Source: a virus
Taxonomy: Duplodnaviria > Caudoviricetes
IMG/VR virus record: IMGVR_UViG_3300011116_001227
Reading direction: 5' to 3' (one strand)
DNA: 64,000 nt
Both the position numbers and the translations under genes were made by a program. Below are positions 35,041 through 61,534 of the stretch, piece after piece. Numbering within the stretch: position 1 is the first letter of the stretch; every line of letters begins with the position of its first letter. Under the pieces are notes generated by a model. That model made no database searches, was not told where the DNA came from, and saw only the letters and a list, made by a program, of their open reading frames with translations.

Positions 35041-35469
35041 TTATTGATCAATTTTAATTAGTTCGATGCAGAGTGTGCATTGATTGTGTCTGTAATCAAA
35101 ATTTGACATTTCTTTAAGCGAAATACGAAAAGGACCTTCAACGGCACAGGTCTTAGACAAAAAGTTAAGAGAGTATTTGGGGCAGGTACAGATATTTTGA
35201 TTTTTTGTTATCGAGAATATTTCATAAGAATCTAAGATAGAAGCCTTAAAACTTAATTCTACACAATTGTCTTTAGCATCTCTATTAAATTGTGTAAGCG
35301 GACCATCGATAGAAGACAATTGACTGTCATGATCAAAAATAATTTCTACAGATAAAGACGAATCGATACTCAATTCTATGTCTAAATCTTGATTATTTTC
35401 TTGTAAGTCTAAATGACCTTTTAGCGCTTCGCTTACTAAGACTCGTGTTTTATTTTCATCTAAAATCAT
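35041..35469 (-). CDS. hypothetical protein
   Basis: 142-aa ORF. Confidence 0.5.
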   Translation of the reverse strand: MILDENKTRVLVSEALKGHLDLQENNQDLDIELSIDSSLSVEIIFDHDSQLSSIDGPLTQFNRDAKDNCVELSFKASILDSYEIFSITKNQNICTCPKYSLNFLSKTCAVEGPFRISLKEMSNFDYRHNQCTLCIELIKIDQ

Positions 35470-35837
35470 TGTTCTGGAATGAGAACTACGTCTTTGTAGA
35501 CACTATCAGCATGCTTTGCATATTCTTTATCGAGTTCAGTCACACTTTTAATATTTTTTGTTTGAAGCATCAAAACGACATTATCTTCTTCTATAATAAA
35601 TTTTGCATGATGACCTACGTCTTGCTCGTAATTAAGAAGCTGTTTAATAAAGTCGTTTCGGTGTTGAACTACACGAAAATCATACTTTTTCACATAATAC
35701 TCTTGCGATTTCTTCCAACTATTCATTGGAATGACAGGAAGAGATGCCTTCACAGGATCAATTGGCAACGAGCCTTTTATCATTGGCGTTCTAGCATTAC
35801 TAATAAAATTCTCGTGAAGGCTTGCAATAGATTTCAT
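35466..35837 (-). CDS. pterin-4-alpha-carbinolamine dehydratase-like protein
   Basis: W...KKYDF...F...GHHA...LQT...VTELD..A..D pattern. Confidence 0.65.
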   Translation of the reverse strand: MKSIASLHENFISNARTPMIKGSLPIDPVKASLPVIPMNSWKKSQEYYVKKYDFRVVQHRNDFIKQLLNYEQDVGHHAKFIIEEDNVVLMLQTKNIKSVTELDKEYAKHADSVYKDVVLIPEQ

Positions 35838-40150: not shown

Positions 40151-40686
40151 GCGTTTCCTCCACCAGGGCCCGCTGCACCAGCTCGTGGTGCTGGAAATTC
40201 TTCATCTTCAAATTCATTGTGAGATTTTCCAATCTCGACGCTGTACATGTCTAGAAGATTATCTTTGAATGACTTGACAGTTGCACTATCATAATTTTCA
40301 GCAAGGTAATTTGATGCTCGCTTTAAGATCGTGTCTCTAATTTCAAGAAGATTGTCGTAGTTAGAAACTAACCTCATCACGTTGTTGATGAAATTTTCCA
40401 TGTTGATGTCTTCAAGCTTGAGATTTTTAAGACTATCGTCTTTAGACTCATCTCCACCTTCAGCATCATCTTCGACTTCTGTCAAAAAATTTCTTACAGA
40501 CTGTCTAAAGTCATACGACTCTTTTTTCACTACTTTTGAATCTGATTCATAAGATGCTAAATACCTGTCGACTTGTGAGTCTAAAGAGTCTTCATTGTCT
40601 TTCTTGACACCAGCTTCTTTTAAGATCTCTTTTCTTAAAAAATTACGAAGTTCACTAACTGTTTTTATTTTGAAGTTTTTATTCAT
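40147..40686 (-). CDS. hypothetical acidic protein with leader variant
   Basis: KTVSELRNFLRKEILKEA. Confidence 0.55.
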   Translation of the reverse strand: MNKNFKIKTVSELRNFLRKEILKEAGVKKDNEDSLDSQVDRYLASYESDSKVVKKESYDFRQSVRNFLTEVEDDAEGGDESKDDSLKNLKLEDINMENFINNVMRLVSNYDNLLEIRDTILKRASNYLAENYDSATVKSFKDNLLDMYSVEIGKSHNEFEDEEFPAPRAGAAGPGGGNA

Positions 40687-41411
40687 TTTAGCACCAAGCT
40701 AATTGCTTCAGATTTTTTAAATCTCTCTTCAATTACAGTCCAGTTAAATTCTTTCATCTGAGACATCATGTAAGACTTTTTATCTGTCAAGTAATCTCTA
40801 AAGTAGGAATGCTCCCACATGTCAACAACAATCACTGGAAAAAGACCTACCATAACATCGCCACTATGATGACTAATAACAGTATTGACATATCGCTTTA
40901 GAAACATGTTAAAGCCTGTCACTACCCAACCATTTCCTGCGCTAAGTCCTGCTGCAATGAAATCTCGCTGCCAGTCTTCAAACGTTCCAAAGTCTCTTTG
41001 TAGTCTTAAAAAAGACAATGAATCCATTACAATCTCTGAGTGCGGGTCAAAGCAATTAGAAAAATAAAGCTCATGAAGCCATGTTCCATTTAGATTGTAA
41101 GTCTCGTCTAACTTGAGGGAACGATAATCAGAATGTCTTGAATTGGCTGCAGATCTGTCGACAGAATCAAGTTTTGTTGATGACTTATTGAAGGAATCAA
41201 TATATCCTTTGTAAAGCTCAACATGAGCCATCTTTGCTTTCTCTGATAGAAATTCTGTTACTTGCTTGAACTGCTTTGGCTCATGAACATAAGCCTCTTC
41301 TAACAAGTCAGACTCGGCAACAATATCTTTAGACTGTGTTTTTAAAGAATCTTTGATTATGCTTTTAACATCTACACCAAAGATGTTGTTGTCTTTTTTA
41401 GTCGCGGACAT
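40683..41411 (-). CDS. sod: Fe/Mn superoxide dismutase with N-terminal extension
   Basis: HVELYKGY, LHELYF, GNGWV, VDMWEHSYFRDY. Confidence 0.85.
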   Translation of the reverse strand: MSATKKDNNIFGVDVKSIIKDSLKTQSKDIVAESDLLEEAYVHEPKQFKQVTEFLSEKAKMAHVELYKGYIDSFNKSSTKLDSVDRSAANSRHSDYRSLKLDETYNLNGTWLHELYFSNCFDPHSEIVMDSLSFLRLQRDFGTFEDWQRDFIAAGLSAGNGWVVTGFNMFLKRYVNTVISHHSGDVMVGLFPVIVVDMWEHSYFRDYLTDKKSYMMSQMKEFNWTVIEERFKKSEAISLVLK

Positions 41412-41736
41412 AATTTTTCTCCAATTCGTCTTTTGAAACAAAGAAATCATTCGAACCGTCAGGATTACCATCGGGCGGCCTTAGGTCTACACCTCGAATA
41501 CTCACAGCAGTGACTGTATAAAGAACGCCACCCTGATCTTTATAGGTGTTAATTTCGTCCTTATCTTTGTCGTCCCTGACTTTACTTTTGATCTTTAAGC
41601 CTGGATCAAGCACAGATTTGTTCTTGCCGTCGACTTTGGTGTTGAAAGCAAGATCAACCTTTTCAGCAAGGGCAGATAATTTAGAATTCCACTCTTCCCG
41701 AATTAGTTTGATGAAGTCATTATCGTTTTTCTTCAT
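41398..41736 (-). CDS. hypothetical protein with leader variant
   Basis: MKKNDNDFIKLIREEW. Confidence 0.5.
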   Translation of the reverse strand: MKKNDNDFIKLIREEWNSKLSALAEKVDLAFNTKVDGKNKSVLDPGLKIKSKVRDDKDKDEINTYKDQGGVLYTVTAVSIRGVDLRPPDGNPDGSNDFFVSKDELEKNYVRD

Positions 41737-41747
41737 TACGCAATTTC

Positions 41748-42194
41748 TCAATCTGTAAGTATCAAGTCATTCAATCTAGTTACTTCTATCCCAGAATTTC
41801 TAAGTATCTTTAAACCTGACATGTCTCGATACTCAAAATCGTAAATTACGCTAGAAATATCAGCATTTACAATTAGTTTTGCACAAGAAACGCATGGGGC
41901 ATGCGTCAAGTACATAATTTTCTTTCTATTAAAATTATAATTACACTTTATTAAAGCATTAACTTCAGCATGAATCATGCCACTTTGCCCCGGCTGATCA
42001 CTTTCTGCTTCGTTTGGACCTCCTCTATAATTTCCGTTATAACCAAGAGACAAAAGACGAGTGTTGTCATCAGATACAACAATTGCGCCTACTTTTAGTC
42101 TGGGATCATAAGAACGCTCTGAAATATTCCAGGCAATCTTCATCCAGACCTGCGGCCAGGGTGGTCTTTTCATATTACTTTTCGCGTGTATCAA
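41748..42194 (-). CDS. dCMP deaminase
   Basis: KVGAIVV, GYNG, HAEVNAL, PCVSC. Confidence 0.9.
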   Translation of the reverse strand: MIHAKSNMKRPPWPQVWMKIAWNISERSYDPRLKVGAIVVSDDNTRLLSLGYNGNYRGGPNEAESDQPGQSGMIHAEVNALIKCNYNFNRKKIMYLTHAPCVSCAKLIVNADISSVIYDFEYRDMSGLKILRNSGIEVTRLNDLILTD

Positions 42195-42741
42195 TTAGAG
42201 GATGACACTTTAGACACCGAGGTTCATATAACTCTGCACCACCCACCTCGATCTCGTCTCCACCGACCTGTTTCTTGTATGTGTAATAAGCATCTCTATT
42301 ACAAACTACACAAACTGCGCTGAGTTTTTCAACTTTAGTTGCCCAAGGAAGCATCTTCTCGACTTCAGAAAAAACCAATCCCGTAGATGAAAGCTCAAGA
42401 GAAGAAACAACGACTGAGTAGCCATTTCTATACAGCCATATCAATGTTTCTGCAATGTTTGGAATCATAAATGCTTCATCAACAGCAACAACGTGAGGAT
42501 TTTCGTTGAGCGTTGCCAAATGTTGAATAACATCTGCACCTGATTTTACACACACAGCTGACATTTTTGATCCTCCGTGCGTGATGACTTCAGTCTCGCT
42601 GTAACGATCATCAATTTCTGGTTTGTACAATACAATTCGCTTATGCTGATACTTGTATCTTTCAAGCGAAGAAAGCAATCTTGATGTCTTTGAAGAGAAC
42701 ATCGGACCCGTATAAACAATAAATTCAGGTATATACATCAC
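42175..42741 (-). CDS. tdk: thymidine kinase (type II)
   Basis: GPMFSSKTS, DDRYS, VDEAF, CVVC, GGAELYEPRC. Confidence 0.92.
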   Translation of the reverse strand: MMYIPEFIVYTGPMFSSKTSRLLSSLERYKYQHKRIVLYKPEIDDRYSETEVITHGGSKMSAVCVKSGADVIQHLATLNENPHVVAVDEAFMIPNIAETLIWLYRNGYSVVVSSLELSSTGLVFSEVEKMLPWATKVEKLSAVCVVCNRDAYYTYKKQVGGDEIEVGGAELYEPRCLKCHPLIDTREK

Positions 42742-42747
42742 TTTACC

Positions 42748-43710
42748 TCACTGCATCTTCTGCAACCAATCCCAATTGTCTTCATACCACTTTATTGTTT
42801 TATCTAGACCTTCCCAGACTTTTACTCTTGGATCATAACCTATCAATTCTTTGGCTTTTGTAATATCAGCCTTCGTGTTCTTGACGTCACCGATTCTCCA
42901 AGGCGCGTTATGAGAAATTGCTTTTGGATATTTTGACTTCAAGTAATTAAGAATCTGTAAATTTGTAACAACTTCGCCGACACCAACATTAATAATCTCA
43001 GCTTTGAGATCTTCTTTACAGAGCGCTGATTTAATAAGTGCATCGACAACATTATCAACATAACACATGTCTCTGGATTGCGATCCATCACCGTCAGAAC
43101 GCATTGACTTATTAGACTTTATTGCAGTCAACCAGGCACTGACTGCGGTCGAGTAAGGAGAAGTTCCTAATTGATTCGGACCAAATACGTTGAAGAATCT
43201 TAAGCATACAGAATCGAGACCGTACAGAGAATAAAACAGCTTTAGATAATTCTCAATTATCGCTTTTTGAAGTGCATAAGGAGATTGCGGATTATTGATC
43301 GCAGTCTCTGGTGTAGGAAGTATGTCTGTATTGCCGTAAGAAGATGAAGATGCAGCAAAAACAAATCTTTTGACTGTGCCTTTTGTTTTACATGCATTTA
43401 ATAACATGAGTGTCTTTGACACATTTGTATCATTTGTTTCTACAGGATGTTCTACAGAATAAGTCACTCTTGGATTTGCTGCCAGATGAAAAACATATTC
43501 GTATGCTCCTTCACTAATTCTCTTTAAGACTTCGGGCGATGCAAAATCTTCAACCCACAAGCGCTCTGACCTGAGGTCTACATGCAAAAATTGAGCATTA
43601 CCATTTGAGAGATCATCTACGACGTCGACATGCCACCCTCTCGCATGAAGTGCATTCGAAAGATTACTTCCAATAAAACCTGCGCCACCTGTAACAAGAA
43701 CTTTAGTCAT
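42748..43710 (-). CDS. NAD-dependent NDP-sugar epimerase/dehydratase (extended SDR)
   Basis: ATG 43710; GGAGFIGS, SSSSYG, YALQK, FNVFGP. Confidence 0.9.
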   Translation of the reverse strand: MTKVLVTGGAGFIGSNLSNALHARGWHVDVVDDLSNGNAQFLHVDLRSERLWVEDFASPEVLKRISEGAYEYVFHLAANPRVTYSVEHPVETNDTNVSKTLMLLNACKTKGTVKRFVFAASSSSYGNTDILPTPETAINNPQSPYALQKAIIENYLKLFYSLYGLDSVCLRFFNVFGPNQLGTSPYSTAVSAWLTAIKSNKSMRSDGDGSQSRDMCYVDNVVDALIKSALCKEDLKAEIINVGVGEVVTNLQILNYLKSKYPKAISHNAPWRIGDVKNTKADITKAKELIGYDPRVKVWEGLDKTIKWYEDNWDWLQKMQ

Positions 43711-43762
43711 TCTCGACTCTCCAATTTCGCAATTATAACACTCGTAAAAAATGCGTATAAGA

Positions 43763-44758
43763 TCAAGTCTTCTTCCAAAAAGAATACATGTTCTTCTCAA
43801 TCTCGTAATTCATGAGCTTGACTTCTCTCTTTGGCTGAGTCTTAGCCCATGTTATCATCTTATCGACGAGCTGCTCGAAATTTGTGTCGTCCTTAAAGTC
43901 TAGTTCTCTCTTTGCCTTAGAGTGATCACAATAAGCAATCTTCACTTCATCACGTGGCTCAAGATGAACAATCTTAACATCCAATCCGTGACGCTTAGCA
44001 ACAAGCTGAAAACGCTGAGCAGCTTCGAGGATAGAAACATGACTATCAGCACCAATATTGTAAATTTCGCCATCACCCATCACCATCAATTTTTCAAAAG
44101 GCTCCATGTAAAAATCGACATCAGAGAAAGATCTCATCTGCAAACCATCTCCGAAGATAGTCAGAGGTTGTCCAGATAAACTTTGTCTAATCCAGATGCC
44201 AATTACATTCCTGTATTTATCCCAAATATTCTGGTAAACCCCGAATACATTGTGCGGTCTTACAATGCTGTAATTCAAACCAAAAAATCTATTTGCTGCT
44301 ACTAGATCCTGCTCCACAGTATATTTCGCAATACCGTACGGATCTTCAGGCAATTGTCTTTGAGTCTCTACGAAAGGCGGTGTCTGTGTGCCGTACACGT
44401 CCATCGAACTTGCAAAAATCATCTTTTTAACACTGTTGTTTATGCAAGAATTAATCACGTTTGCAGATGCAACGACATTATTTAAATAGTTGTGATTTCT
44501 GATAAACGGACTTAATCCAACAGCTGCATAAGCAGCAAAGTGATAAACAAAATCAGGTTTCTCTGTCTGCATCATGTAATTAGTCAGTCGAAGATCTGTT
44601 AAATTACATTCATAGATCTGAACTGACTGGTGAACTAAATCTCTATAACCTCCACTAAAATCGTCGATTCCAATTACCTTGTGACCCTTTTTTATAAAGT
44701 GTCTCGACAAATGGTTTCCAAGTAAACCTGCAACGCCAGTGATAAGAATTTTTGACAT
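43763..44758 (-). CDS. NAD-dependent NDP-sugar epimerase/dehydratase
   Basis: GVAGLLG, SSMDVYG, YGIAK, HNVFG. Confidence 0.9.
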   Translation of the reverse strand: MSKILITGVAGLLGNHLSRHFIKKGHKVIGIDDFSGGYRDLVHQSVQIYECNLTDLRLTNYMMQTEKPDFVYHFAAYAAVGLSPFIRNHNYLNNVVASANVINSCINNSVKKMIFASSMDVYGTQTPPFVETQRQLPEDPYGIAKYTVEQDLVAANRFFGLNYSIVRPHNVFGVYQNIWDKYRNVIGIWIRQSLSGQPLTIFGDGLQMRSFSDVDFYMEPFEKLMVMGDGEIYNIGADSHVSILEAAQRFQLVAKRHGLDVKIVHLEPRDEVKIAYCDHSKAKRELDFKDDTNFEQLVDKMITWAKTQPKREVKLMNYEIEKNMYSFWKKT

Positions 44759-44781: not shown

Positions 44782-45693
44782 TCAAATAACGTCTTGTCTG
44801 ACATGTGCGCTATTTAAATTGACGACAAGCGAAATACTCTTTGCTGGCCATAGAAATTTTTTCGTAATAAAAGCAGCAAGATGTGCAAGAAATCTTGTGT
44901 CAATAGACCCGTTTTTTCGAACGTCCGTGCTTCTAAGTGTACAAACAACACTGACATTTTCATTACGGGGAAGAAAATGAATAGAAGAGATACAAGAATT
45001 ACTTGAATAATAAAAACGTCTGGACGAAAGGTCTTGAGGCAAGTTGTAAGGATTTTTACCTTCTAACTCGTTCTCTATGATTTCACAGCATTCTTTCATA
45101 ATACTGCTGTAATATTCACATTCATGTTTATTAAGCATGATCTCATCGTCGCTATAAGAAGGATCGATTGACATCTTGAATTTTAGCTGCTCCTCGTAAG
45201 AAAATAGACCAGACACCCAAGATGATGTCATGTTACCTACTTCTCCAGGCAAAGAATTCTCTTGTGATTTTAAACGATTTGCAACATAATCAGCTAGTTG
45301 ATCCGCAGATTCTGAATTTCTAATCACAAGAACATTCGGCATGTATTGCAGTTTAGATACTTCTTCATCAAATATTTGTCTTAACTTTACAACAGATGCA
45401 GCATCTTGAAATTCATCTCCTCGAGATGATAAACGATCGAGTAAAACATCTTCGGGCGGAATCAAGACGACAAAAAAGTTGTTGAGATCTGATAATTCTT
45501 CTCTCAAAAATTGTCTTTGCTTCTCTACGTCACGACCGTACTGTCTTGCATAACAAAGCATTGAAAGACAGGAACGATCTTGAATGTTGTAACTAAAATT
45601 TGTCGCTTTGTGAAGCTTGCTAATAAAAGTTGTTTTACCTGCTAGATCGGGACCTTCAACTAGCAGATAACGAATTGGAAGTTGTGTCTTCAT
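44782..45693 (-). CDS. dNMP kinase fused to a minimal thymidylate-synthase/dCMP-hydroxymethylase-like domain
   Basis: N-terminal EGPDLAGKTT and DRS; C-terminal SCISSIHF, LRSTDV...D, SAH. Confidence 0.7.
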   Translation of the reverse strand: MKTQLPIRYLLVEGPDLAGKTTFISKLHKATNFSYNIQDRSCLSMLCYARQYGRDVEKQRQFLREELSDLNNFFVVLIPPEDVLLDRLSSRGDEFQDAASVVKLRQIFDEEVSKLQYMPNVLVIRNSESADQLADYVANRLKSQENSLPGEVGNMTSSWVSGLFSYEEQLKFKMSIDPSYSDDEIMLNKHECEYYSSIMKECCEIIENELEGKNPYNLPQDLSSRRFYYSSNSCISSIHFLPRNENVSVVCTLRSTDVRKNGSIDTRFLAHLAAFITKKFLWPAKSISLVVNLNSAHVRQDVI

Positions 45694-45697
45694 AATC

Positions 45698-46174
45698 TTA
45701 AGAACGTAAGATCAATCTTACCAAGCTACGTACAAGATTTTCAAATTTCATCTGTTCGTAACCTTTATTTAAGGTAACAAGATAATCTTTTGAAACTTCT
45801 GACTTCTTTGGGTCGATACTAACATAAGCATAAGCTTCGTAACATCTTCCTTCGCAGTTCACAGTCACTCTAATTTTTTTATAATCTTGTTCAGCTGTTC
45901 TCTTATCAGCGTCTTCGAAACAATCTAAAGATTTTTCTTGTATTGGAGTTGTCTCATATAAGACGCCCTTCACAAAATGTCCTGGTGATTTAATTGCTGT
46001 TGCTCCGTGCCACGTCTTAGAATATCCCGTAAATCCAAGATTAAAGTTAGGCAATACAGCATTTCCGATTTTTTTTAAGTTTAAATCTGTAAAACCACAA
46101 GGAGGACCGGACTTCGCTCTCTTGTGAAGCAAGTCTTGGTCCATGTTGGCGCCATAAGCAAAGTAGAAAGACAT
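45698..46174 (-). CDS. gamma-glutamylcyclotransferase (AIG2-like) family protein
   Basis: YFAYGANM, VKGVLY, LDCFE, AYAY. Confidence 0.8.
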   Translation of the reverse strand: MSFYFAYGANMDQDLLHKRAKSGPPCGFTDLNLKKIGNAVLPNFNLGFTGYSKTWHGATAIKSPGHFVKGVLYETTPIQEKSLDCFEDADKRTAEQDYKKIRVTVNCEGRCYEAYAYVSIDPKKSEVSKDYLVTLNKGYEQMKFENLVRSLVRLILRS

Positions 46175-46192: not shown

Positions 46193-49100
46193 TTATTCGA
46201 CTAAAGCTCTCATTTTATACACTGATGTAGAAAAACCCCAATTTGCATCGTTTGATGCTTGAGCTAACCACAATGTGTAAGGTTTGATTTCTTCTTTTGG
46301 TGTGCCCCATGCACGCAACCAAGCAGTCCTATGTTCATCATCGACGGCTTTAATTCGATAGAAGATCTTTCCATTTTTAGTCTTCTTCACCTGCACTTCT
46401 GCAGCGCAGAACCAACCAATACCTTCTGTCCCTGGTTCAATATCATGAAGTTTTGGAACTTGTTTTTCTGCAATCTTGGACATAACTGCAGGTGGAAACA
46501 AGAGATCTGAATCTACAGACTGTGTCAATTCTTGACACATCAGAATCTTTTCTTCACGCGACCAATCCTCAATTTCAGCAAGAGAAGCTAACGTCACATC
46601 AAGGAAAGCTTCAATCTTCTCACCAGCTTTAGCTTTCTTCTTGAGTTGTGATGCTGTCAATCCGTAAAGGCCTCTACGAAGCATCTCGTAATTTTTGTCA
46701 TCTGTTAATGCCAACAAAAGTTGCTTGTGATTATTAATTTTTCCGACGCTAAAATCTTCGAGCGATGACAATGCATCGATCTTGCAGAGTGCTGACAGAG
46801 CTGTCTTATTCATCTTGCTGTGGCGCCAATTACCTTCATTATCATACAACATCTCCTGGAGATTTTTGTAAGGACGAAGTTGCATGATCTCTTCGACTGC
46901 AGTCGAACCAATGCCCTTGACCGAGCTGAGGGGCGGAACGAAAGCGGCTGCTTCTTCAGAATACTGCCACTCTTTTCCTGAGTAGTTCACATCGATCTTA
47001 GAGAAACTGTAACCGAGCGCTTTGATCTCGGAGATAGTCTTAGCAAGACCTTTTGGATTTGTGTTCTCAGACTGCAGCGCCGTCGCGAGCCATTCTTTCT
47101 CGTAGTGGGTGTGGAGCCACGCAGCGTAGTAGGAGTCGATCGCATATGCTAAACTATGGGATTTATTGAAGCAATAGACTGACATGTTGTCAATTGTCTG
47201 CCAGAGCGGCTCTGTTACTTCAGGACCGACGCCGTGAATGCGCTGTGCACCTTCGATAAACTTCTGTTTCGCGATCTCTTTTTCGGACGTCTTCTTGTCC
47301 AAAGTGTCAAGAGACTTCTTGACAAGCGTCTTGCGTAGCTGATCTGCTTCACCCGGTGTGAAGCCTCCAAGCTTCTCAGCGAGTAACATAAATTGTTCCT
47401 GGTACACTACGAAATTCCTCGTCGGCCCTAGCACCTGTTCGATGATAGGGTGTGGATAATCGATGTGTTCTTTCTTCCTTGCCTCGACGAAAAGGTTGTG
47501 GACATTAGCTTTAAGTGGGCCAGGTCGATAGATCGCAGTGATGGCAGTCAAGTCTTCGATTTTCGTTGGCTTCACTGCTTTGCAGAACTTCCTCGCTCCC
47601 TCTGCTGTCATCTGAAACACAGAGACGAATGCTCCATCTTGGTAGACGTGCTTCCAGACAACAGGATCGTCCTGCTTCACATAACGACAGTTGAGGTGTT
47701 TGTCAAAGAATTCCCTAACGTCCAAGAAAGTAGGATTCGGATTGCCTTGCTTCACGAGGATCCGGCTGATGCAATTCTCCACGTCCTTGAGGAGAGTGAG
47801 ACCCAGGAAGTCGAACTTCAGGAAGCCGTTGTCCTCCAGGTTGCGGAAGTTCATGCCCTCCGTCCACGGTGTCTGAAGTTCACCTCGCACACCGATGATG
47901 GGCATATTCGCCGCGAGGTCGTCGGGATCGGCCAATAGAACGCCACCGGCGTGTCGACCCACCGATCGGTTCTGCATAAACAGGGTTTCGACGTGGGCAG
48001 CCACCTCTGGGTACTTCTCCATGAAGGCCGTGTACTTCGGCGAGTACTTCATGCAGTCCTCATGCTTCAGCACGAAGACCGACTTCTCCTGGTCCTCGTC
48101 TCGAGCCAGCGGCATCACCTCGTCCTGGAGAGGGCCGGTCATCTCGTTCACCTCCTCGAAGGGCACGCCGTAGATCTTGGCGATGTCCTTGACGAGGGAC
48201 TTGAGCTTCAGGGTGTTGAAGTTGGACACCGGGATCACGGCGTCATCGCCGAACAGAGTTCGTGCCGCATCGATAAGGACATCCCTGTCACCTGCGTCTG
48301 TATCGATATCCGGAAAGCTCACTCGGTGTCGTCCCAAAAATCTGCTCCAAAGCAAACCGTATGGTATCGGATCGATCTGCGTGATGCCTAACAGGAAGTT
48401 GACGAGCGATCCCGCACCACTCCCGCGGCCGCTTCCAAAGAGTGTCTTTTCCTTCGCAAGATTGAACACTTTATACATCGTAATGAAGTACGAAGCACAC
48501 TTCAAATACTTGATGTCACCGAGTTCGTATTTTGCTCTTTCCACATACGCAGGCTTGTCGTCTAAGCCTTCACGCTTCAGGCCCTCCATCACAAGCTCGG
48601 TAAGTTGCTTGAACGCAGATTTCTCAGGTGTGTCGACCTTCGGTAGCTTCGGTTTCGTGTCCACCCAGGTGTCTTCGCACTCGTTCCACGTGATGTCGTG
48701 GGTGCGTTCGATGGAGTCACGCACCAATTCTTCAGAACCCTTATAGAACTCGTACTGCTCGTAGGACCGCTTGTACTCATCCCACATCTGGGACGCGTTC
48801 TTTGGATATAGTTCGCACTTGAGGTCTTCGAACTTAGGCAGTGTTGCACCATCAAGTTTGGCACCCATCCAGCCGAGCTTCTTGTACAGCTCACGCGCTT
48901 GCCACTTTGAGGGATCTGGGTAGTGAGAATCACACGTGGAGACGAGCGGCACGCCTGTCTTCTTAGAAAGATCGATCAAGTACTTGTTGACTGTGTGTTG
49001 TTTCTCAAGCTTGTTGAACTGTAGCTCAAGATAAAAGTTTTTGTTGCCCACGGCGCTTTGGAATCTGTCAGTAAGATTCTCAAGATCTGTCATAATCTCG

Positions 49101-50227
49101 TCGTGCGGCTTATTCTGTGCTTCACCTAGAAGAATCTTGCCGCTGTAGATTCCGCCTAGACAGTTATGAACTACAACACCGTTCGCAAAGAAATTGTGGT
49201 TGTCTTCGACAGTAATATCGTAGACATCTTCTGTGTAGTCCAATTCTTCAACTTCGATCACGTCAACGAACTTGTAGGTTTCCATATTATTTTTCATCCA
49301 AGAAACAATCTTGACAGGCATGTTCTCCTTGAGCTCATCGGCACGAAGCCAGCCCTTGTCTGTCAAGACTTGATGGTCTGGTGTGAGTCTTACTTCTTTA
49401 CCATCAGCAGTCTTGAGCTTGACGATCTTTGCAGATGTCCTCGTCTTATCTCCCCACAAGACACGTTTGAACTGCAGTTCTTTGCTTTCTTCATTGAAGG
49501 AAAGAACTATGGGATTCTCCCCTGCCCTGTATCTCTCGATGACTCTTAGCAATGTCTCGGTACCCATGTCTGTTACAAGCTCAGCATCACCCGTAAGACA
49601 CGCCGTCGACCAGATGATGTCTGACCCGTATTTTTGGAGTAGCTCAAAGTCGATTCGAGGATAACGATAGAAGCCGTACTTGTAAGATGCCTTGACAAGT
49701 CTGAAGATGTTCGCAAGACCGTTCTGATTCTTAGCTACAGCAACAAGGTGATAGCGTCGTTGCCAGTCTCTGGATGACACGTCGACTGTCTTGGTTTCAT
49801 TCTCATCTTCAACGACGTGGCCGCCCTGTTCATCCTCTTCTTCGCCCGGATCGGCATCGATGTCTGTAGGAGTCTTGGCACGCTTCTCCATCTCAGCAGC
49901 AGTCTTTGCATCCTTAACGCTCTGCTTATGGGCTTCATAATCAATAGCCCACTGCTTCAGTGAGGGCACAAAGTAGAATTCCACACCGTAGAGCTGTCGA
50001 TACTTCTTGCCCTTCTTCTGTACCTTCAGAGCTGCAGATCGAGCATGTGCTAGACCGTTGCCATTACCATGATCTGTGAGTGCCCAGGCATCCATACCTT
50101 GTGACTCAGAGGTGACAAAGGCAATGTGATCGGCTGGATAGCCGAGTCCGTCGAAGGTGCTAAATCCGCTGTGGCCGTGGAAAGAAACAAATCTGTCAGG
50201 TGGGCGAATAAGATCTAATTTTGACAT
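46193..50227 (-). CDS. dnaE: DNA polymerase III alpha subunit with mini-intein
   Basis: PHP HGHS..STFDG, ALTDHG, GRGSGAGSL, FPDIDTD, GRHAGG, KFDFLGL, FNKSHS. Confidence 0.95.
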   Translation of the reverse strand: MSKLDLIRPPDRFVSFHGHSGFSTFDGLGYPADHIAFVTSESQGMDAWALTDHGNGNGLAHARSAALKVQKKGKKYRQLYGVEFYFVPSLKQWAIDYEAHKQSVKDAKTAAEMEKRAKTPTDIDADPGEEEDEQGGHVVEDENETKTVDVSSRDWQRRYHLVAVAKNQNGLANIFRLVKASYKYGFYRYPRIDFELLQKYGSDIIWSTACLTGDAELVTDMGTETLLRVIERYRAGENPIVLSFNEESKELQFKRVLWGDKTRTSAKIVKLKTADGKEVRLTPDHQVLTDKGWLRADELKENMPVKIVSWMKNNMETYKFVDVIEVEELDYTEDVYDITVEDNHNFFANGVVVHNCLGGIYSGKILLGEAQNKPHDEIMTDLENLTDRFQSAVGNKNFYLELQFNKLEKQHTVNKYLIDLSKKTGVPLVSTCDSHYPDPSKWQARELYKKLGWMGAKLDGATLPKFEDLKCELYPKNASQMWDEYKRSYEQYEFYKGSEELVRDSIERTHDITWNECEDTWVDTKPKLPKVDTPEKSAFKQLTELVMEGLKREGLDDKPAYVERAKYELGDIKYLKCASYFITMYKVFNLAKEKTLFGSGRGSGAGSLVNFLLGITQIDPIPYGLLWSRFLGRHRVSFPDIDTDAGDRDVLIDAARTLFGDDAVIPVSNFNTLKLKSLVKDIAKIYGVPFEEVNEMTGPLQDEVMPLARDEDQEKSVFVLKHEDCMKYSPKYTAFMEKYPEVAAHVETLFMQNRSVGRHAGGVLLADPDDLAANMPIIGVRGELQTPWTEGMNFRNLEDNGFLKFDFLGLTLLKDVENCISRILVKQGNPNPTFLDVREFFDKHLNCRYVKQDDPVVWKHVYQDGAFVSVFQMTAEGARKFCKAVKPTKIEDLTAITAIYRPGPLKANVHNLFVEARKKEHIDYPHPIIEQVLGPTRNFVVYQEQFMLLAEKLGGFTPGEADQLRKTLVKKSLDTLDKKTSEKEIAKQKFIEGAQRIHGVGPEVTEPLWQTIDNMSVYCFNKSHSLAYAIDSYYAAWLHTHYEKEWLATALQSENTNPKGLAKTISEIKALGYSFSKIDVNYSGKEWQYSEEAAAFVPPLSSVKGIGSTAVEEIMQLRPYKNLQEMLYDNEGNWRHSKMNKTALSALCKIDALSSLEDFSVGKINNHKQLLLALTDDKNYEMLRRGLYGLTASQLKKKAKAGEKIEAFLDVTLASLAEIEDWSREEKILMCQELTQSVDSDLLFPPAVMSKIAEKQVPKLHDIEPGTEGIGWFCAAEVQVKKTKNGKIFYRIKAVDDEHRTAWLRAWGTPKEEIKPYTLWLAQASNDANWGFSTSVYKMRALVE
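49163..49600 (-). mobile_element. 146-aa mini-intein (no endonuclease) in the dnaE PHP domain
   Basis: CLTGD block A, TPDH block B, VYDITVEDNHNFFANGVVVHN-C terminus; exteins rejoin as STA-CLGG. Confidence 0.92.
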
Positions 50228-50272: not shown

Positions 50273-51265
50273 TCAAACTTTAGGGAAATGTTGCAGTAGA
50301 TCTGTACCTTTCGACTTAGCTTCATCGAGATACTTCAGAGGGTTATAGTTCTTAGATGAATTTGAAGAAATCCAATCGTAAGTCGCCTTGACGCCGCCCT
50401 CCAAGTCAAGCTTCGGAGACCAGCCAATTTGCTTTCTGACCTTGGCAGATGACAGTCTGTGGTTTCCGAGATAATCAGTCTTTGGATACCAGCGGACGAT
50501 TTTTTCTACGTTTTTCCCGACAACACGAGAAACAAGATTCATGATCTCTGCGGCGGTGTGAGGTGTCTCAGCTGCGACGTTAAAATCAGTACCCCAACCA
50601 TCCTTGCTCTCACAGATCATCGACACGGCTTCACAGTAATCGGACACGTGGAGATAATCCTTGATCTTCGCGGGGTCTAAGAAGATGTCAACAGAATCTT
50701 TGTTCTGCAAGGATGCATAGATACTCTTGGCGATGAGTGAATTCATGTCACCCTCGTCACCAAAAGCGAAGAGAGGACGCACCACAGACCAGCGTTTTGC
50801 CATGCTGGTGATGATCTGTTCACCTGCAAGCTTCTGCACGCCATAATAAGTGAGAGGCTTTCTAGCTGAGTCTTCAAAAATCTGCTGATTCTGGTAGGAA
50901 GGCGTGTCATAAATCACGGTGGTACCCATGTAGCACACGCCGGCACCAGCTGCGTTAGCTGCTCTAACAATATTGTAAGAACCGTGCACGTTGCTCAGCG
51001 TCGCTTCTGCGGGATTGAGAGCAACCACGTCTGTTCCCACAACGGCTGCATTGTGCACAACAACATCAACCCCGTATTTTTTAAAAGCTCTTGACCAAAC
51101 GTCTTCTGAATTTCGGTGCACACACACTTCACCCGTTTTTGGTAACGTAAGCATGTTGTCTCCAATTAGATCAGCATCCGATAGAATCGAGTGACCTCGA
51201 GCAATCAGCTTCTTCTTCAAATGTCTAGCAATAAATCCTGCACCACCCGTAATGTAAAAACGCAT
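50273..51265 (-). CDS. NAD-dependent NDP-sugar epimerase/dehydratase
   Basis: ATG 51265; GGAGFIA, HNAAVVG, YGVQK. Confidence 0.85.
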   Translation of the reverse strand: MRFYITGGAGFIARHLKKKLIARGHSILSDADLIGDNMLTLPKTGEVCVHRNSEDVWSRAFKKYGVDVVVHNAAVVGTDVVALNPAEATLSNVHGSYNIVRAANAAGAGVCYMGTTVIYDTPSYQNQQIFEDSARKPLTYYGVQKLAGEQIITSMAKRWSVVRPLFAFGDEGDMNSLIAKSIYASLQNKDSVDIFLDPAKIKDYLHVSDYCEAVSMICESKDGWGTDFNVAAETPHTAAEIMNLVSRVVGKNVEKIVRWYPKTDYLGNHRLSSAKVRKQIGWSPKLDLEGGVKATYDWISSNSSKNYNPLKYLDEAKSKGTDLLQHFPKV

Positions 51266-51365
51266 GTCTCCTCCGATGCAGAGCATTATAACAAAAAAAG
51301 CGACCAAATACAAGGTCACTTTTTTATAGATCTCGAGATTTTGAGAATGAATTACAAGCTAAAAA

Positions 51366-51940: not shown

Positions 51941-52414
51941 TCACTCAATTTCTTTGTCATACGGCTCGTAAAGCATCTCACCTTCAGACTTACAGCGTTC
52001 CAGGTAGTCCTCGAGCTCTTCAAAAGAAGTACACACACGCGAGCCTGATCTTGACAACATGAGATTAAACTTTGCTCCGGCAGGAAGTCCTGCGCAGAAA
52101 TAGATAATGTGCTTATCAAAAGCAGTGGCATATCCACATTCCATGATTGTGCCAAGATCCTTGTCACGTGTATTCACCACGAGAAAGTCGGCCTCGCGAA
52201 TGTGCTTTAGGTTCCCCTGATAGGTTGCATCTTGAACCTCTCGAGATGCATTAGGGGGACAGATAAAGATCCTTCGAGGAGACGCCATATCAATCCAGTC
52301 CTTGCGTGCCTCCATGATCTGCTCAAGTCTTGTAAGCTCTGCATCCTGTACAGGATTAAACCATCCGGCTGCAAGATACATCTTCAGAGTACGTCCAAAC
52401 TTATTCTCACTCAT
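51941..52414 (-). CDS. nucleoside 2-deoxyribosyltransferase / NMP hydrolase family protein
   Basis: YLAAGWF, ADFLVV, DLGTIMECGYA. Confidence 0.8.
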   Translation of the reverse strand: MSENKFGRTLKMYLAAGWFNPVQDAELTRLEQIMEARKDWIDMASPRRIFICPPNASREVQDATYQGNLKHIREADFLVVNTRDKDLGTIMECGYATAFDKHIIYFCAGLPAGAKFNLMLSRSGSRVCTSFEELEDYLERCKSEGEMLYEPYDKEIE

Positions 52415-52528: not shown

Positions 52529-53509
52529 TCACTTGTTTGACTTCCAGTTATTGTGCTCAGACTTGAGCTTATCAAACTCAGAAATACCTGAATTCCAATG
52601 CTGAAGGAACTTTCTCTGTGGGCCATCTCCGTGAGTACCATTTAGCTCTTCGCGGGTGCACTGGTAGATTGTATCCTCGGGATGGTACTCGAACTTATCA
52701 TTCTTTGGAATGGGCCAGTATAGGTTTGTGCCGCGGGACACGAACTTATCACCCTCCTTCACGCGGAAGGTCTTGATGTAGTGCATGTCGGGCTTGTTGA
52801 AGTCCACCATCGTGGTGAACTCCGGAATAACCTTGGCAACCTCGACTGCCATTCTTACCGCAAGCAGGTTGTCACTAGATGTTTGAATTTGAGAATCTTG
52901 ACGCTGATAAATGAAGCCCACCAGGTCCTTGAGCGAAAGACGCATATAGTAGAACGAGGTCATGCACTTAGGAAGAATGAGTCGTGCGTCCATCATAGAC
53001 ACGACCTTGGAATCAGTCATATCAGCGTAGAGCTGCTTGGACTCTTCGACAAGCTTCTTCCATCTCGCCAAGAACTCAGGTGAATTCTCTACGGGCTCAG
53101 GAATGACTGCATCGTCGTCGCGGAGGTCGCGATCGCCGGTGCACTGTGCAGCAAAAGTGCCAGCACGGTGGCGGATGATGTGTGTCACCTCTTGGAAAGA
53201 CATACCGCTCAGACGGAATGTGAAACCGAGACATTCCATGGGAGCCGGAAGTGTTCGTCCACCAAAGACGTCCTCCAGGTTCTTAGACAGATCATGATCT
53301 GATGCTGACTCGGGATGGATGTCAGGTCTATCTGCCCAAGTTGCCTTAACATAATGCCAAGCCACGTTCCAAGCTTGCTGTCGCGTCGGATGGTCGACAA
53401 GCTCGATCTTTAGTGCATCGATGTTGTTGAGGAAGTTGGTCTTGACTGGTCGTCCGAACTTTAATTCCATGGGTAGTTCAATCGGCTGTAGGTCTTTATT
53501 AATGGGCAT
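52529..53509 (-). CDS. divergent ThyX-like flavin-dependent protein
   Basis: FTFRLSG, IIRHR, DARLILP and QR..SQIQ follow ThyX, but the RHRx7S Ser is Cys. Confidence 0.75.
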   Translation of the reverse strand: MPINKDLQPIELPMELKFGRPVKTNFLNNIDALKIELVDHPTRQQAWNVAWHYVKATWADRPDIHPESASDHDLSKNLEDVFGGRTLPAPMECLGFTFRLSGMSFQEVTHIIRHRAGTFAAQCTGDRDLRDDDAVIPEPVENSPEFLARWKKLVEESKQLYADMTDSKVVSMMDARLILPKCMTSFYYMRLSLKDLVGFIYQRQDSQIQTSSDNLLAVRMAVEVAKVIPEFTTMVDFNKPDMHYIKTFRVKEGDKFVSRGTNLYWPIPKNDKFEYHPEDTIYQCTREELNGTHGDGPQRKFLQHWNSGISEFDKLKSEHNNWKSNK

Positions 53510-53581: not shown

Positions 53582-54523
53582 TCAAAGAATATGGGCAATC
53601 TTATCGATTACGTCTTCATTTTCTTCGACGTAGATAATTCCTCTAACATTTTTTACTTCTTCGTTGTATGATTTTTTAGGAACTACGCATATGACGCCGT
53701 GCTTTGCGTATTCTGACGCATGTTTAGCTGAATCATCTACAGCAAATAATTTTGCAGTCTTATAGAAGTCTTGTCCCGCGAGCCAAGCAAATTTTTCTGG
53801 CGTGAATACTACGTCATCTGCAGGAATCTTGTTGAGGTGCAGCCACGCGTATGTATCGTAAAAGCAAGTTAGATTTTGTGAATCTCTTGCTGTAACTATC
53901 TGCACCCAGTATCCCTTCTGTTTTAAAGCAATTAAGAAGTTGTAGTACTTCTTGCTGAGCTCTAGACGCAAAAATCCATGGTCTTCGATGAATTTCTTAA
54001 AAAAGAATTCGCTGTTTAAACCATGCTCTTTAAACTTCACTGTGTTGTAATATTCTGGACAATACGGGTCCATGAATATTCCTGTTTGATCTGTAACATA
54101 TTTACAGAATTCATTTCTAAACTCTGCCAACACATCGTCGATGTCAAACAAAACGATGGGTTCTCCTGACCACTTCTTGTCTCGAAGTTGGTGTCTGTAA
54201 TGAAGATAATGATCTTTCTGTTCAAGAGCTGACGTCAATTGTTCTGAAGTAAGATTCCATAAATTTGCAATTGCCAAGATGTAACGATACGCGTCAGCAG
54301 ACTTATACAAGATCTTTTGCAGATCTGTTTCTCTTGCTTCTCTGCGATGTTCTTTGTAGTTGACAGCACTGCACAAATCTGTAATCTCGGAGTGAAGTGC
54401 AAGACTTAAAGTTTTAAACTCTTCGATCTTCTGTTCGTCAGTTAACTCAGATGAATTATAAAAGTAATTTGAAAAAGTCTTTTGCGTTCTCAACGCATCA
54501 ACAAGGTAATTCCAGTTAGACAT
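53582..54523 (-). CDS. MazG-like NTP pyrophosphatase fused to a HAD 5'(3')-nucleotidase
   Basis: LHSEITDL...SADAY N-domain; FDIDDVL, VTAR, AVDDS HAD motifs. Confidence 0.7.
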   Translation of the reverse strand: MSNWNYLVDALRTQKTFSNYFYNSSELTDEQKIEEFKTLSLALHSEITDLCSAVNYKEHRREARETDLQKILYKSADAYRYILAIANLWNLTSEQLTSALEQKDHYLHYRHQLRDKKWSGEPIVLFDIDDVLAEFRNEFCKYVTDQTGIFMDPYCPEYYNTVKFKEHGLNSEFFFKKFIEDHGFLRLELSKKYYNFLIALKQKGYWVQIVTARDSQNLTCFYDTYAWLHLNKIPADDVVFTPEKFAWLAGQDFYKTAKLFAVDDSAKHASEYAKHGVICVVPKKSYNEEVKNVRGIIYVEENEDVIDKIAHIL

Positions 54524-54526
54524 GTA

Positions 54527-54943
54527 TCAATAACCGCTCTTTAGACGCTGAACATTAATTGCACCCTTCTTCATAAAAGCTTCGTGCAATTCTTCAGAAG
54601 AAATTCCACTATAAATGACGATGCCAAAGAAGTAGTGTAATGCGTCTACGAGCTCTTCTTTGTAAGATTCTCTATCGAATTCTTTGACTTCTGTCACGCG
54701 ATGATTCTTGCTGTTCTTCAAGAGATGATTAGCTTCAAAAAGCTCGTGCATACATTCGTGAGCTAATCCTTTTAAAATTTGTTGATTCTTCTTTTCTTTT
54801 AAATCGAGAGGAAAATCCGGGTAACCTCTATCGTCCCTTAACAAATAATTAAAGTCACGTTGTTGATTGTACATCTCATCAAGTTTATCCATGCAAACCT
54901 CTTGTGTTATTTTAAACCCGACAACACTCAAAGTACAATACAA
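54527..54943 (-). CDS. all-alpha dNTP pyrophosphatase (MazG / dimeric dUTPase / dCTPase-like)
   Basis: HECMHELFEA, EELVDALHYF. Confidence 0.75.
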   Translation of the reverse strand: MYCTLSVVGFKITQEVCMDKLDEMYNQQRDFNYLLRDDRGYPDFPLDLKEKKNQQILKGLAHECMHELFEANHLLKNSKNHRVTEVKEFDRESYKEELVDALHYFFGIVIYSGISSEELHEAFMKKGAINVQRLKSGY

Positions 54944-54966
54944 GTTGATTATAATAATTACAAATT

Positions 54967-55491
54967 ATGAAAAAGAACGAATTCAAAAAGCTGCTAGAGA
55001 TATTCGGAGAACCTATTGGTAGGTACGCAGGCGATGCTCCCGAAGGCGTAAGAAATGAGCCTGTCATTTGTCCTGTCTGCAAAATGATGTTTGTAGACAA
55101 AAAATGCGGCTGCGAAGACTCGAACGACGTATGTCCAACGTGCGGCATGATGCCAGTTGACGGCAAATGCGGATGTGTCAAAGAATCAGTTGAAAACACT
55201 TCTTGCTCTTGCCACGAATCAGACGAAATAAATAAAGAACCCTGCGAGGAGTGCGGCTTAATTGAATTTAATCCACAACCAGAACCTCCCGGTGTAGATA
55301 AAGATTCAGATAAAATAAGTGAAAGTAAAAAGAAGAAGGGTCCAAGCAAGAAAACTGCAAAGAAAATTCTTCGTGGAACAAAGACCTTTGCACAAAAAAT
55401 GAAAAAAGTTTCAGGTTGGGCAGAAGATCCAGCAGCTGCTGCAGCATGGATGATGCATAAGGCTACAGGGAAATGGCCTTCAGAAAAATGA
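54967..55491 (+). CDS. Cys-rich hypothetical protein
   Basis: CPVCKMMFVDKKCGC / CPTCGMMPVDGKCGC repeats, CSC, CEEC. Confidence 0.6.
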   Translation: MKKNEFKKLLEIFGEPIGRYAGDAPEGVRNEPVICPVCKMMFVDKKCGCEDSNDVCPTCGMMPVDGKCGCVKESVENTSCSCHESDEINKEPCEECGLIEFNPQPEPPGVDKDSDKISESKKKKGPSKKTAKKILRGTKTFAQKMKKVSGWAEDPAAAAAWMMHKATGKWPSEK

Positions 55492-57217: not shown

Positions 57218-57250
57218 AAGGTTTCACCCCCTATGCCTAAATATATCGAA

Positions 57251-61533: not shown

Positions 61534-61534
61534 T

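Follow-up and report, generated by a model that had tools for sequence, protein, structure and literature searches.

A nucleotide kinase fused to a minimal thymidylate-synthase-fold domain: a candidate dCMP-modifying enzyme of uncultured aquatic phages

Introduction

Enzymes of the thymidylate synthase (TS) family are the entry point to most of the pyrimidine modifications known in phages, namely 5-hydroxymethylcytosine, 5-hydroxymethyluracil and, since 2025-26, 5-hydroxycytosine. TS homologues in which the residue at position 177 of ThyA is changed from Asn to Asp (N177D) make 5-hydroxymethyl- or 5-hydroxy-dCMP (PMC13326640). Here we describe a gene (P0001) from an uncultured freshwater phage, carried on a 64,000-nt stretch of the IMG/VR record IMGVR_UViG_3300011116_001227 (hereafter the window), in which a nucleoside monophosphate (NMP) kinase is fused to a minimal TS-fold domain whose Asp265 aligns with this position.

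In phage T4 the pyrophosphatase gp56 makes dCMP, the hydroxymethylase gp42 modifies it and gp1 phosphorylates the product, while cd, tk and td serve the thymidine branch. The fusion protein would combine the roles of gp42 and gp1 in one chain. It shares with gp42 the TS fold, the catalytic Cys, an Asp at the 169 position (ThyA numbering) and the cytosine-type Asp (Asp179 in gp42, Asp265 here). However, gp42 is a 246-residue protein separate from gp1, it binds methylenetetrahydrofolate (CH2-THF), and its position 143 is acidic rather than Ser; gp1 also belongs to another kinase family.

The best match in both structure and sequence is to the 5-hydroxy-dCMP (5hodCMP) synthases, represented by AfhB of phage HY126 (PDB 9iqu and 9iqc), RB69 gp48 and DLP3 gp80. 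The Cys, SRR, RS, His and cytosine-type Asp elements are in register between these enzymes and the domain described here, and both lack the TS tail. A signature of L143D/E, the Cys, D169N and N177D was used to pick TS homologues from metaviromes, and all of those picked made 5-hydroxy-dC (Lee et al. 2026, PMC13326640). The synthases differ from our domain in several respects. They are 217-238 residues long compared with 154, they carry Asn at position 169 and Glu at position 143 where ours has Asp and Ser, and all gp48 homologues listed match the Pfam TS model PF00303, which our domain fails to do. Furthermore, the synthases adjoin a T4-type polymerase and have a kinase as a near neighbour, whereas the gene in the window adjoins a DnaE-type polymerase and has the kinase fused. 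In RB69, DLP3 and RL38J1 this neighbour is a small 'nucleotide kinase' resembling thymidylate kinase (TMK) and YorR, located 1-3 genes from the synthase (the RB69 layout was checked). When the fusion family was compared with the RB69 gp45 kinase by hhalign, the P-loop alone aligned, which is no sign of a specific relationship between the two kinases.

For the N-terminal domain, the closest structural match is YorR (BSU20280; PDB 3kb2 and 2axp) of the Bacillus subtilis prophage SPbeta, and the two share an EGxDxxGKTT-type P-loop. YorR is a stand-alone protein whose substrate is not known, in contrast to the kinase described here, which is joined to a TS-like domain. In SPbeta, too, the gene lies in a replication module with a DnaE-like polymerase.

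Compared with ThyA itself, the TS-like domain retains the core sheet and helices, the dimer mode (as predicted) and counterparts of C146, R126/R127, R166/S167, D169 and H207, but Asn177 is replaced by Asp and about 110 residues are gone, including the W80/W83 region and the C-terminal tail. Other viral fusions with the same domain content are found in the ESM Atlas (437 aa, PF02223 plus PF00303); in those proteins the TS domain is full-size and recognisable by Pfam, whereas here it is minimal.

Results

Domain organization and fold

The gene and its two domains are located as follows.

44782..45693, minus strand: kinase/TS-like fusion gene (P0001), 303 codons plus stop, from the list of open reading frames (ORFs) and the translation
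45253..45693, minus strand: N-terminal P-loop NMP-kinase domain, residues 1-147, YorR/BSU20280-like and thymidylate-kinase-like (VIA, phrog_761)
44785..45246, minus strand: C-terminal minimal TS-fold domain, residues 150-303 (AlphaFold2, Foldseek, VIA, hhalign)

The AlphaFold2 model of the whole protein, built on 40 homologues, has a mean pLDDT of 93.6 and a pTM of 0.90, and the C-terminal domain modelled alone (86 homologues) reaches a pLDDT of 96.9. When this domain was searched against the PDB with Foldseek, the top 50 matches were all TS-family enzymes or TS-derived scaffolds. The best was the dCMP hydroxylase AfhB of phage HY126 (9iqu, E 5e-7, TMq 0.62), followed by the T4 dCMP hydroxymethylase, ThyA and MilA. 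An independent structure scan, VIA, covering 48,161 chains, put seven TS-family chains first, at Z 8.6-10.4 and covering 135-142 of the 154 residues (9iqc at 10.4, then 9.8, 9.4, 9.2 and 9.2, MilA at 9.2 and the T4 hydroxymethylase at 8.6); the following row had a Z of 5.6. Searches of BFVD and the ESM Atlas concur. Both Foldseek and VIA thus place the domain in the TS alpha/beta fold, with ThyA, T4 gp42 and MilA among the matches, as a preliminary description of this DNA had anticipated. That description took the TS-like part to be about 110 residues long; its actual extent is about 154 residues (150-303), and it is the smallest TS-fold domain that the search could find.

Sequence models recognise this domain poorly. 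PF00303 gave no match in the fusion protein at E up to 1, and because the family escapes the Pfam TS model, searches that use this model would miss it. The sole TS-related NCBIfam match was to the archaeal family TIGR03283 (E 0.0036, 16.8 bits against a cut-off of 174), and phrog_35203, a 150-residue family of function not known, matched weakly (E 0.02). Otherwise Pfam, NCBIfam and PHROGs, run on the whole protein and on each half, gave kinase-type matches only. A phmmer search of the PDB with the single fusion sequence likewise found nothing meaningful, and a family profile was required. The fold of residues 150-218 is assigned from structure alone, because hhalign never aligned this region to TS sequences.

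The N-terminal half had been described as a deoxynucleoside monophosphate kinase, and this holds. In the VIA scan it matched 2axp_A at Z 14.5 (rmsd 2.5, 141 of 147 residues aligned, 23% identity), with thymidylate kinases next at Z 11-12, and against PHROGs it matched phrog_761, 'thymidylate kinase', at E 8e-11. The corresponding general models, PF02223 (14.5 bits against a cut-off of 27) and TIGR00041 (21 bits against 83), cover only the P-loop and missed their cut-offs. Conservation was counted in 197 full-length family members of 23-99% identity and, for some positions, in a sample of 80 IMG/VR loci, which is less biased than the set of 197. The kinase motifs are as follows.

45628..45654, minus strand: P-loop GPDLAGKTT, residues 14-22; G14, D16, G19 and K20 kept in 191-196 of 197
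45571..45579, minus strand: DRS motif after strand 2, residues 39-41, presumed NMP-site Asp/Arg; D39 in 187 and R40 in 196 of 197
45406..45435, minus strand: LID-like segment RLSSRGDEFQ, residues 87-96, with R87 (196 of 197), R91 (183) and D93 (186)

The P-loop Lys, K20, is found in 196/197 homologues and in 80/80 IMG/VR loci, as is the DR of the DRS motif in the latter set. Across the family, the counts for these residues (P-loop Lys, D39/R40, R87, R91) range from 183 to 196 of 197 members. From their places in the NMP-kinase fold, the DRS motif would supply the Asp and Arg of the NMP site and RLSSRGDEFQ would act as the LID segment. The half therefore has a P-loop NMP-kinase fold complete with the Walker A Lys, the putative NMP-site Asp-Arg pair and the arginines of the putative LID.

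Active-site residues of the TS-like domain

Searching the PDB with a family profile in HMMER recovered AfhB (E 1.1e-3), the T4 hydroxymethylase (1.7e-3) and E. coli ThyA (about 0.2), with the Cys, RS, Asp and His in register. Single-sequence comparisons by hhalign gave E-values of 7e-8 for T4 gp42, 5e-7 for RB69 gp48 and 5e-6 for E. coli ThyA. Against a TS-family alignment made of ThyA, T4 gp42, RB69 gp48 and 16 gp48 homologues, the value was 2.3e-12 at a probability of 97.7%. The aligned residues are listed here.

45121..45123, minus strand: Glu191 in the motif HE at the start of a long helix; Glu in 190/197 and 78/80 homologues
45016..45021, minus strand: Arg225-Arg226, aligned with ThyA R126-R127, the phosphate-binding pair given to the partner subunit (hhalign); RR in 77/80 loci
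45001..45003, minus strand: Ser231, at the ThyA Leu143 position (register from the Cys alignment)
44992..44994, minus strand: Cys234 in SCISSIHF, aligned with the nucleophile Cys146 of ThyA and Cys148 of T4 gp42 (HMMER, hhalign)
44899..44934, minus strand: RSTDVRKNGSID, residues 254-265, aligned column by column with ThyA, T4 gp42 and RB69 gp48 (hhalign)
44803..44805, minus strand: His297 in SAH (295-297), aligned with ThyA His207 (HMMER, hhalign); His in 190/197

The motifs SCISSIHF, RSTDVRKNGSID and SAH quoted in the preliminary description are all present and their coordinates were re-checked. Cys234, which corresponds to the catalytic Cys of the superfamily, is kept in 191/197 homologues and 78/80 IMG/VR loci. 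In all hhalign alignments SRR224-226 falls on ThyA S125-R127, with R225 found in 192 and R226 in 184 of the 197 homologues. Within RSTDVRKNGSID, R254-S255 corresponds to ThyA R166-S167, Asp257 to Asp169 and Asp265 to Asn177; R254 is kept in 192 and S255 in 193 of 197. Both sets of phosphate-binding residues, SRR and RS, are thus aligned and conserved, and a counterpart of ThyA R21 was not identified.

The residue at the Asn177 position is the one on which cytosine specificity would depend. Its assignment as Asp, made before from a single alignment by eye, was reproduced by three methods (HMMER, hhalign with single sequences and hhalign with the family), and in every one of these alignments Asp265 sits on Asp179 of T4 gp42 and on the matching Asp of gp48. 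Asp265 is present in 193/197 homologues and 78/80 IMG/VR loci, consistent with a cytosine-type site. Two nearby positions vary more. The 143 position, acidic in hydroxymethylases and 5hodCMP synthases, is Ser in 138, Asp in 25 and Asn in 11 of the 197 homologues, and Asp in 39, Ser in 18 and Gln in 10 of the 80 IMG/VR loci. Position 257 (ThyA 169) is Asp in 139 and Asn in 48 of the 197, and Asn in 42, Asp in 22 and Glu in 14 of the 80.

By the order of secondary structure and by its HE motif, Glu191 is a putative counterpart of ThyA Glu58, although the two were aligned by none of the sequence methods. The conservation of Cys, RR, RS, Asp and His across 197 homologues makes the observation one far beyond chance. 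Altogether about 97% of members, ours included, have the catalytic set intact, and about 2-3% lack the Cys.

Missing parts and the question of cofactor

The domain is short at three places. From the alignments, 74 residues precede the serine of SRR (124 in ThyA, 121 in T4 gp42, 136 in RB69 gp48), 7 residues separate RR from the Cys (18 in ThyA and 23 in both T4 gp42 and RB69 gp48), and 6 residues follow the His (57, 30 and 14, respectively). The secondary structure of the model shows that the initial helix, the first of the long strands and 'helix B', a long helix that opens with H190-E191, are kept. Absent are about 50 residues between helix B and the SRR strand, corresponding to the ThyA 67-120 region with W80 and W83, as well as an 11-residue loop preceding the Cys and the whole folate-closing C-terminal tail past His297. 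The domain had been said to lack much of the folate-binding N-terminal part. That it is minimal stands, but the loss comprises these three regions rather than the N-terminal part as such. Of the folate-holding elements, Asp257 is present, while the W80/W83 segment and the tail have no counterpart.

Two observations argue for folate independence: the flavin-dependent 5hodCMP synthases have likewise lost the C-terminal tail, and their D169N signature recurs in many relatives. Counting against it, the protein in the window retains Asp at the 169 position. It departs from the 5hodCMP-synthase signature at two places, with Asp257 in place of D169N and Ser231 in place of an acidic residue at L143, and so belongs to a Ser143, Cys, Asp169, Asp177 (S/C/D/D) subtype that makes up 11/80 IMG/VR loci; the complete signature is found in 29/80. 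Compared with the dCMP hydroxymethylases, Asp at both the 169 and 177 positions fits the CH2-THF type, but the segments that hold folate are absent.

In a FastTree phylogeny of 183 members, the state at the 169 position switches between Asp and Asn at least 14 times, and Glu also occurs among the IMG/VR loci. The Asp/Asn difference is therefore not a single clade split, and since the residue switches repeatedly on the tree it may be no marker of cofactor here.

Predicted dimer

Two copies of the protein were predicted to associate with an ipSAE of 0.87 in three runs, compared with 0.55 for the best control; among proteins of solved structure, 20 of 30 pairs and 1 of 23 single chains attain the mark used. 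Agreement of contacts between runs was at least 90% and the pLDDT of the partner was 91. The predicted interface is the five-stranded TS-like sheet (strands 165-173, 228-255 and 290-297), and R225 of one copy contacts R254/S255 of the other. In TS, R126' and R127' complete the phosphate site of the neighbouring subunit, and the predicted dimer is arranged likewise. The kinase NMP-site helices (32-66) also meet at the two-fold axis. These results point to a TS-like homodimer with shared active sites, with a score to which solved TS dimers known to the model may have contributed.

Distribution of the family

Homologues numbered 221 at E up to 1e-3 in a word-index search, and an exhaustive search gave 251 cluster representatives. 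The family comprises more than 250 protein clusters of river, lake and ocean origin, every one from uncultured aquatic phages, and at least 85 IMG/VR contigs carry a member. Near-identical DNA turned up in 20 sequencing runs, which belong to 9 studies of viral, river, lake, freshwater and marine-plankton metagenomes; the listed runs include no RNA data. Among 50,697 cultured-phage records (August 2025 collection), tblastn found no match to the whole protein at 1e-5 and none to the C-terminal domain at E 5. A divergent family member searched against cultured phages matched only Bacillus/Geobacillus phage kinases. In their sources the members are annotated as 'hypothetical' or 'thymidylate kinase', the latter for several at JGI. 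Three ESM Atlas clusters of the family (83, 198 and 228 members) are all viral and carry no Pfam family, and our literature search found no paper describing a kinase/minimal-TS fusion.

A search for shorter, stand-alone forms of the C-terminal domain gave one candidate and none that was significant. The representative library holds proteins of 143-177 residues on contigs of 0.7-1.7 kb, from which a split form is not established. The best lead is a possible stand-alone minimal TS-like gene for 177 residues (L109:254-787) on a 1.7-kb low-coverage contig; it is preceded by a gene in reverse orientation and a non-coding stretch of 148 bp, and a short-chain dehydrogenase/reductase (SDR) gene follows. 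In BFVD, a 151-residue protein of Synechococcus phage S-CBWM1 was matched at E 3e-3.

Proposed function and alternatives

Taken together, the two folds, the aligned and conserved residues, the prediction of a TS-like dimer and a gene context shared with relatives are best explained by a homodimeric, bifunctional enzyme that modifies dCMP at C5 and phosphorylates the product, a reading to which we assign a probability of about 60%. It is from these observations that we infer substrate, chemistry, product, cofactor and channelling. The same reading, a cytidylate-modifying enzyme feeding its own kinase, was offered in the preliminary description and is still the best supported.

The proposed reaction would run as follows. 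The TS-like domain would bind a cytosine mononucleotide, most likely dCMP, with the 5'-phosphate held by R254/S255 and by R225'/R226' of the partner and the base read by Asp265. Cys234 would then attack C6 and activate C5, which would take a one-carbon or oxygen substituent to give 5-hydroxymethyl-, 5-hydroxy- or 5-methyl-dCMP. The kinase domain would turn the modified monophosphate into the diphosphate, possibly phosphorylating dTMP and other deoxynucleoside monophosphates too, as T4 gp1 does, and this product would go on to the DnaE-type replicase, the gene for which lies just upstream. In function, the one chain would correspond to T4 gp42 and gp1 together, or to the 5hodCMP synthases with their kinase neighbours in RB69, DLP3 and RL38J1. 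For the Asp169/Ser143 subtype to which our protein belongs, a folate-type hydroxymethyl or methyl product is the first candidate, at somewhat less than even odds; an O2-dependent hydroxyl is nearly as likely, and some other product is the least expected.

Several points weigh against this assignment of function. With the W80/W83 region, the pre-Cys loop and the tail absent and PF00303 unmatched, no folate or flavin site is evident, and the residue at the 169 position may not report the cofactor in this family. The mapping of Glu191 to Glu58 and of Tyr216 to Tyr94 was done by eye only. One member (L084:2989-3873), on a 239,550-bp IMG/VR record with direct terminal repeats (CheckV 100%), has intact kinase motifs and a degenerate TS-like domain in which Cys is replaced by Asn, RS by TQ and His by Phe. 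Because it keeps the kinase with a dead TS-like site, the kinase appears to have a role independent of TS-like catalysis, and the TS-like domain may also serve as a scaffold. The L084 genome gave no match to GT1/GT2/GT4, Pterin_4a or a canonical thymidylate kinase. Finally, glycosyltransferases are absent from two of five related genomes (IMG/VR records of 200-284 kb, on which all genome-wide statements here rest), so a hypermodification pathway is not universal.

A bolder version of the dCMP-modifying reading, which we consider tentative and rather unlikely, is that the family is a minimal, folate-independent TS-fold monooxygenase. Using O2 and either a reduced flavin, held loosely, or a simple tetrahydropterin, it would add a hydroxyl to C5 of dCMP and pass 5-hydroxy-dCMP to the fused kinase. 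Two weak leads favour a pterin. The pterin-binding Asp169 is kept while the parts that hold para-aminobenzoate-glutamate are gone, and the window shares a syntenic gene for pterin-4a-carbinolamine dehydratase with four of the five related genomes. If this version were true, a widespread clade of phages of 200-285 kb from rivers, lakes and oceans would replace cytosine by 5-hydroxycytosine or its derivatives, and whether position 169 holds an acid or an amide would indicate which cofactor is used.

Alternatively, the protein could be essentially a dNMP/dTMP kinase in which the TS-derived domain, its cofactor binding lost, acts as a non-catalytic dimerisation scaffold or as a module that senses (d)CMP. 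The deletion of every folate-holding segment of ThyA, the lack of a PF00303 match and a predicted dimer built mostly on the TS-like sheet would fit such a protein, as would L084, with its dead TS-like site in a complete genome. Both complete related genomes lack a canonical thymidylate kinase, so the kinase is probably needed anyway. We nevertheless regard this alternative as improbable, since the residues of the active site (the Cys, RR, RS, the His, the Asp that would read the base and the Glu likened to E58) are near-invariant in sequences down to 27% identity, and the Cys is lost in just about 2-3% of members, whereas domains that only bind usually drop the nucleophile first.

Covalent C6 adducts of cytosine deaminate readily, as established for enzymes acting at C5 of pyrimidines. 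This chemistry, together with the retention of the nucleophile and the nucleotide-binding set in a domain with no recognisable folate- or flavin-holding elements, suggests that catalysis might proceed without a bulky cofactor, by Cys-dependent exchange of the C5 hydrogen, by hydrolytic deamination of dCMP via a 5,6-dihydro adduct or by capture of a small electrophile such as free formaldehyde. However, the window already contains the gene of a zinc dCMP deaminase at a distance of three genes, and most relatives encode one as well; the TS superfamily offers no precedent; and 29/80 members carry the full signature that predicted flavin-dependent hydroxylases in experiments (PMC13326640). This possibility is accordingly more remote than that of a scaffold.

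An ordinary fusion of thymidylate synthase with thymidylate kinase (dUMP to dTMP to dTDP), for which the phage fusions of PF02223 with full-length PF00303 in the ESM Atlas and the 'thymidylate kinase' labels from JGI might speak, is very improbable given Asp rather than Asn at the N177 position in 193/197 members, a canonical ThyX and a second ThyX paralogue already in all five related genomes, and the absence of the folate-binding elements for reductive methylation.

Should the dCMP-modifying reading be correct and the enzyme active, a non-canonical cytosine is predicted in abundant, uncultured large aquatic phages, with effects on their sequencing, restriction and detection. At 154 residues the domain would be the smallest catalytic TS fold, one that tests which parts are needed for C5 chemistry and for holding a cofactor, and the fusion would be a natural single-chain module that modifies and then phosphorylates, useful for making modified dNTPs. 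The Asp, Glu and Asn variants at the 169 position and the dead-site variant are ready points of comparison.

Gene neighbourhood

The genes surrounding the fusion in the window include the following.

35466-35837, minus strand: pterin-4a-carbinolamine dehydratase homologue (E 5e-8), adjoining a CN-hydrolase gene
41748-42194, minus strand: dCMP deaminase
42175-42741, minus strand: thymidine kinase (TK)
42748-44758, minus strand: two extended-SDR genes (NDP-sugar epimerase/dehydratase-like)
45698-46174, minus strand: GGACT/AIG2-like gamma-glutamyl cyclotransferase, between DnaE and the fusion, which begins 4 bp after it
46193-50227, minus strand: DnaE-type polymerase, 1344 residues, with a mini-intein in the PHP domain (residues 227-355)
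50273-51319, minus strand: third extended-SDR gene
51941-52414, minus strand: nucleoside 2-deoxyribosyltransferase (NDT)-family protein (E 2e-13)
52529-53509, minus strand: divergent ThyX, 326 residues (Pfam 60 bits; NCBIfam thyX 34 bits against a cut-off of 88)
53582-54523, minus strand: NT5C
54527-54943, minus strand: all-alpha NTP pyrophosphatase, gp56-like, whose C-terminal 61 residues match the T4 gp56 dCTPase/dUTPase
54912-55349, minus strand: ORF adjoining the pyrophosphatase gene, with no match

In relatives with readable flanks the fusion almost always directly follows DnaE or its C-terminal piece, often with overlapping stop and start codons, at loci of 27-70% identity. This adjacency was seen on marine contigs of 284 kb and 227 kb (45% identity), on a 110-kb contig (50%) and on others at 35-39%. 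Where the upstream ORF has about 360 residues, it carries HHH_6 and is the C-terminal part of a DnaE that is split. The DnaE of relatives is either intact (1193-1208 residues) or broken up into two to three ORFs, which are separated by intein fragments or by an endonuclease-like ORF. The GGACT gene is not found at this place in the related loci examined, where DnaE and the fusion abut or overlap.

In the 3 kb downstream of the fusion, 59/80 loci encode TK, 41/80 a GalE-like extended SDR and 39/80 a dCMP deaminase. An SDR lies immediately downstream in 28 of 34 acid-type members and in 12 of 36 Asn-type members, counts that are not corrected for shared ancestry. The logic of the T4 pathway matches the window, in which the gp56-like pyrophosphatase (BLASTP against T4 gp56, E 3e-7; also Pfam dUTPase_2), the dCMP deaminase, TK and a thymidylate synthase (ThyX) are all encoded.

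The divergent ThyX occurs alongside a canonical ThyX in all five related genomes and could be a second pyrimidine-modifying enzyme; ThyA (PF00303) was found in none of the five. A canonical thymidylate kinase is present in one of them and is missing from both that are rated complete. The NDT-family protein may be a dNMP N-glycosidase, and MilA and MilB offer a precedent for a TS homologue that is paired with a hydrolase of the NDT family. Its gene is conserved upstream of DnaE together with an SDR gene. The Pterin_4a gene is syntenic in relatives; it is absent from one of the five genomes (G005) and lies 7-9 kb off, within a backbone that is generally syntenic.

Glycosyltransferases (PF00535, PF00534, PF13692) were found in three of the five related genomes, where over 100 kb separate them from the fusion; the loci near it have none. 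Given this distance and their presence in only three genomes, the fusion as part of a glycosylation operon was rejected as a general reading.

A few genes downstream of the dCMP deaminase, at 40683-41471 (minus strand), is a gene for an Fe/Mn superoxide dismutase-like protein with an N-terminal extension, found in all related loci examined. Elsewhere in the window, IMP dehydrogenase/GMP reductase is encoded in two ORFs with Hint/intein halves (55504-58153, minus strand), between which is an ORF with the NUMOD3 motif of homing endonucleases. An N6/N4 DNA methyltransferase gene (60961-62314, minus strand; E 1e-38) adjoins an HNH endonuclease gene, and a phage GroEL chaperonin is encoded at 11973-13601 (minus strand; phrog_5725, E 9e-146).

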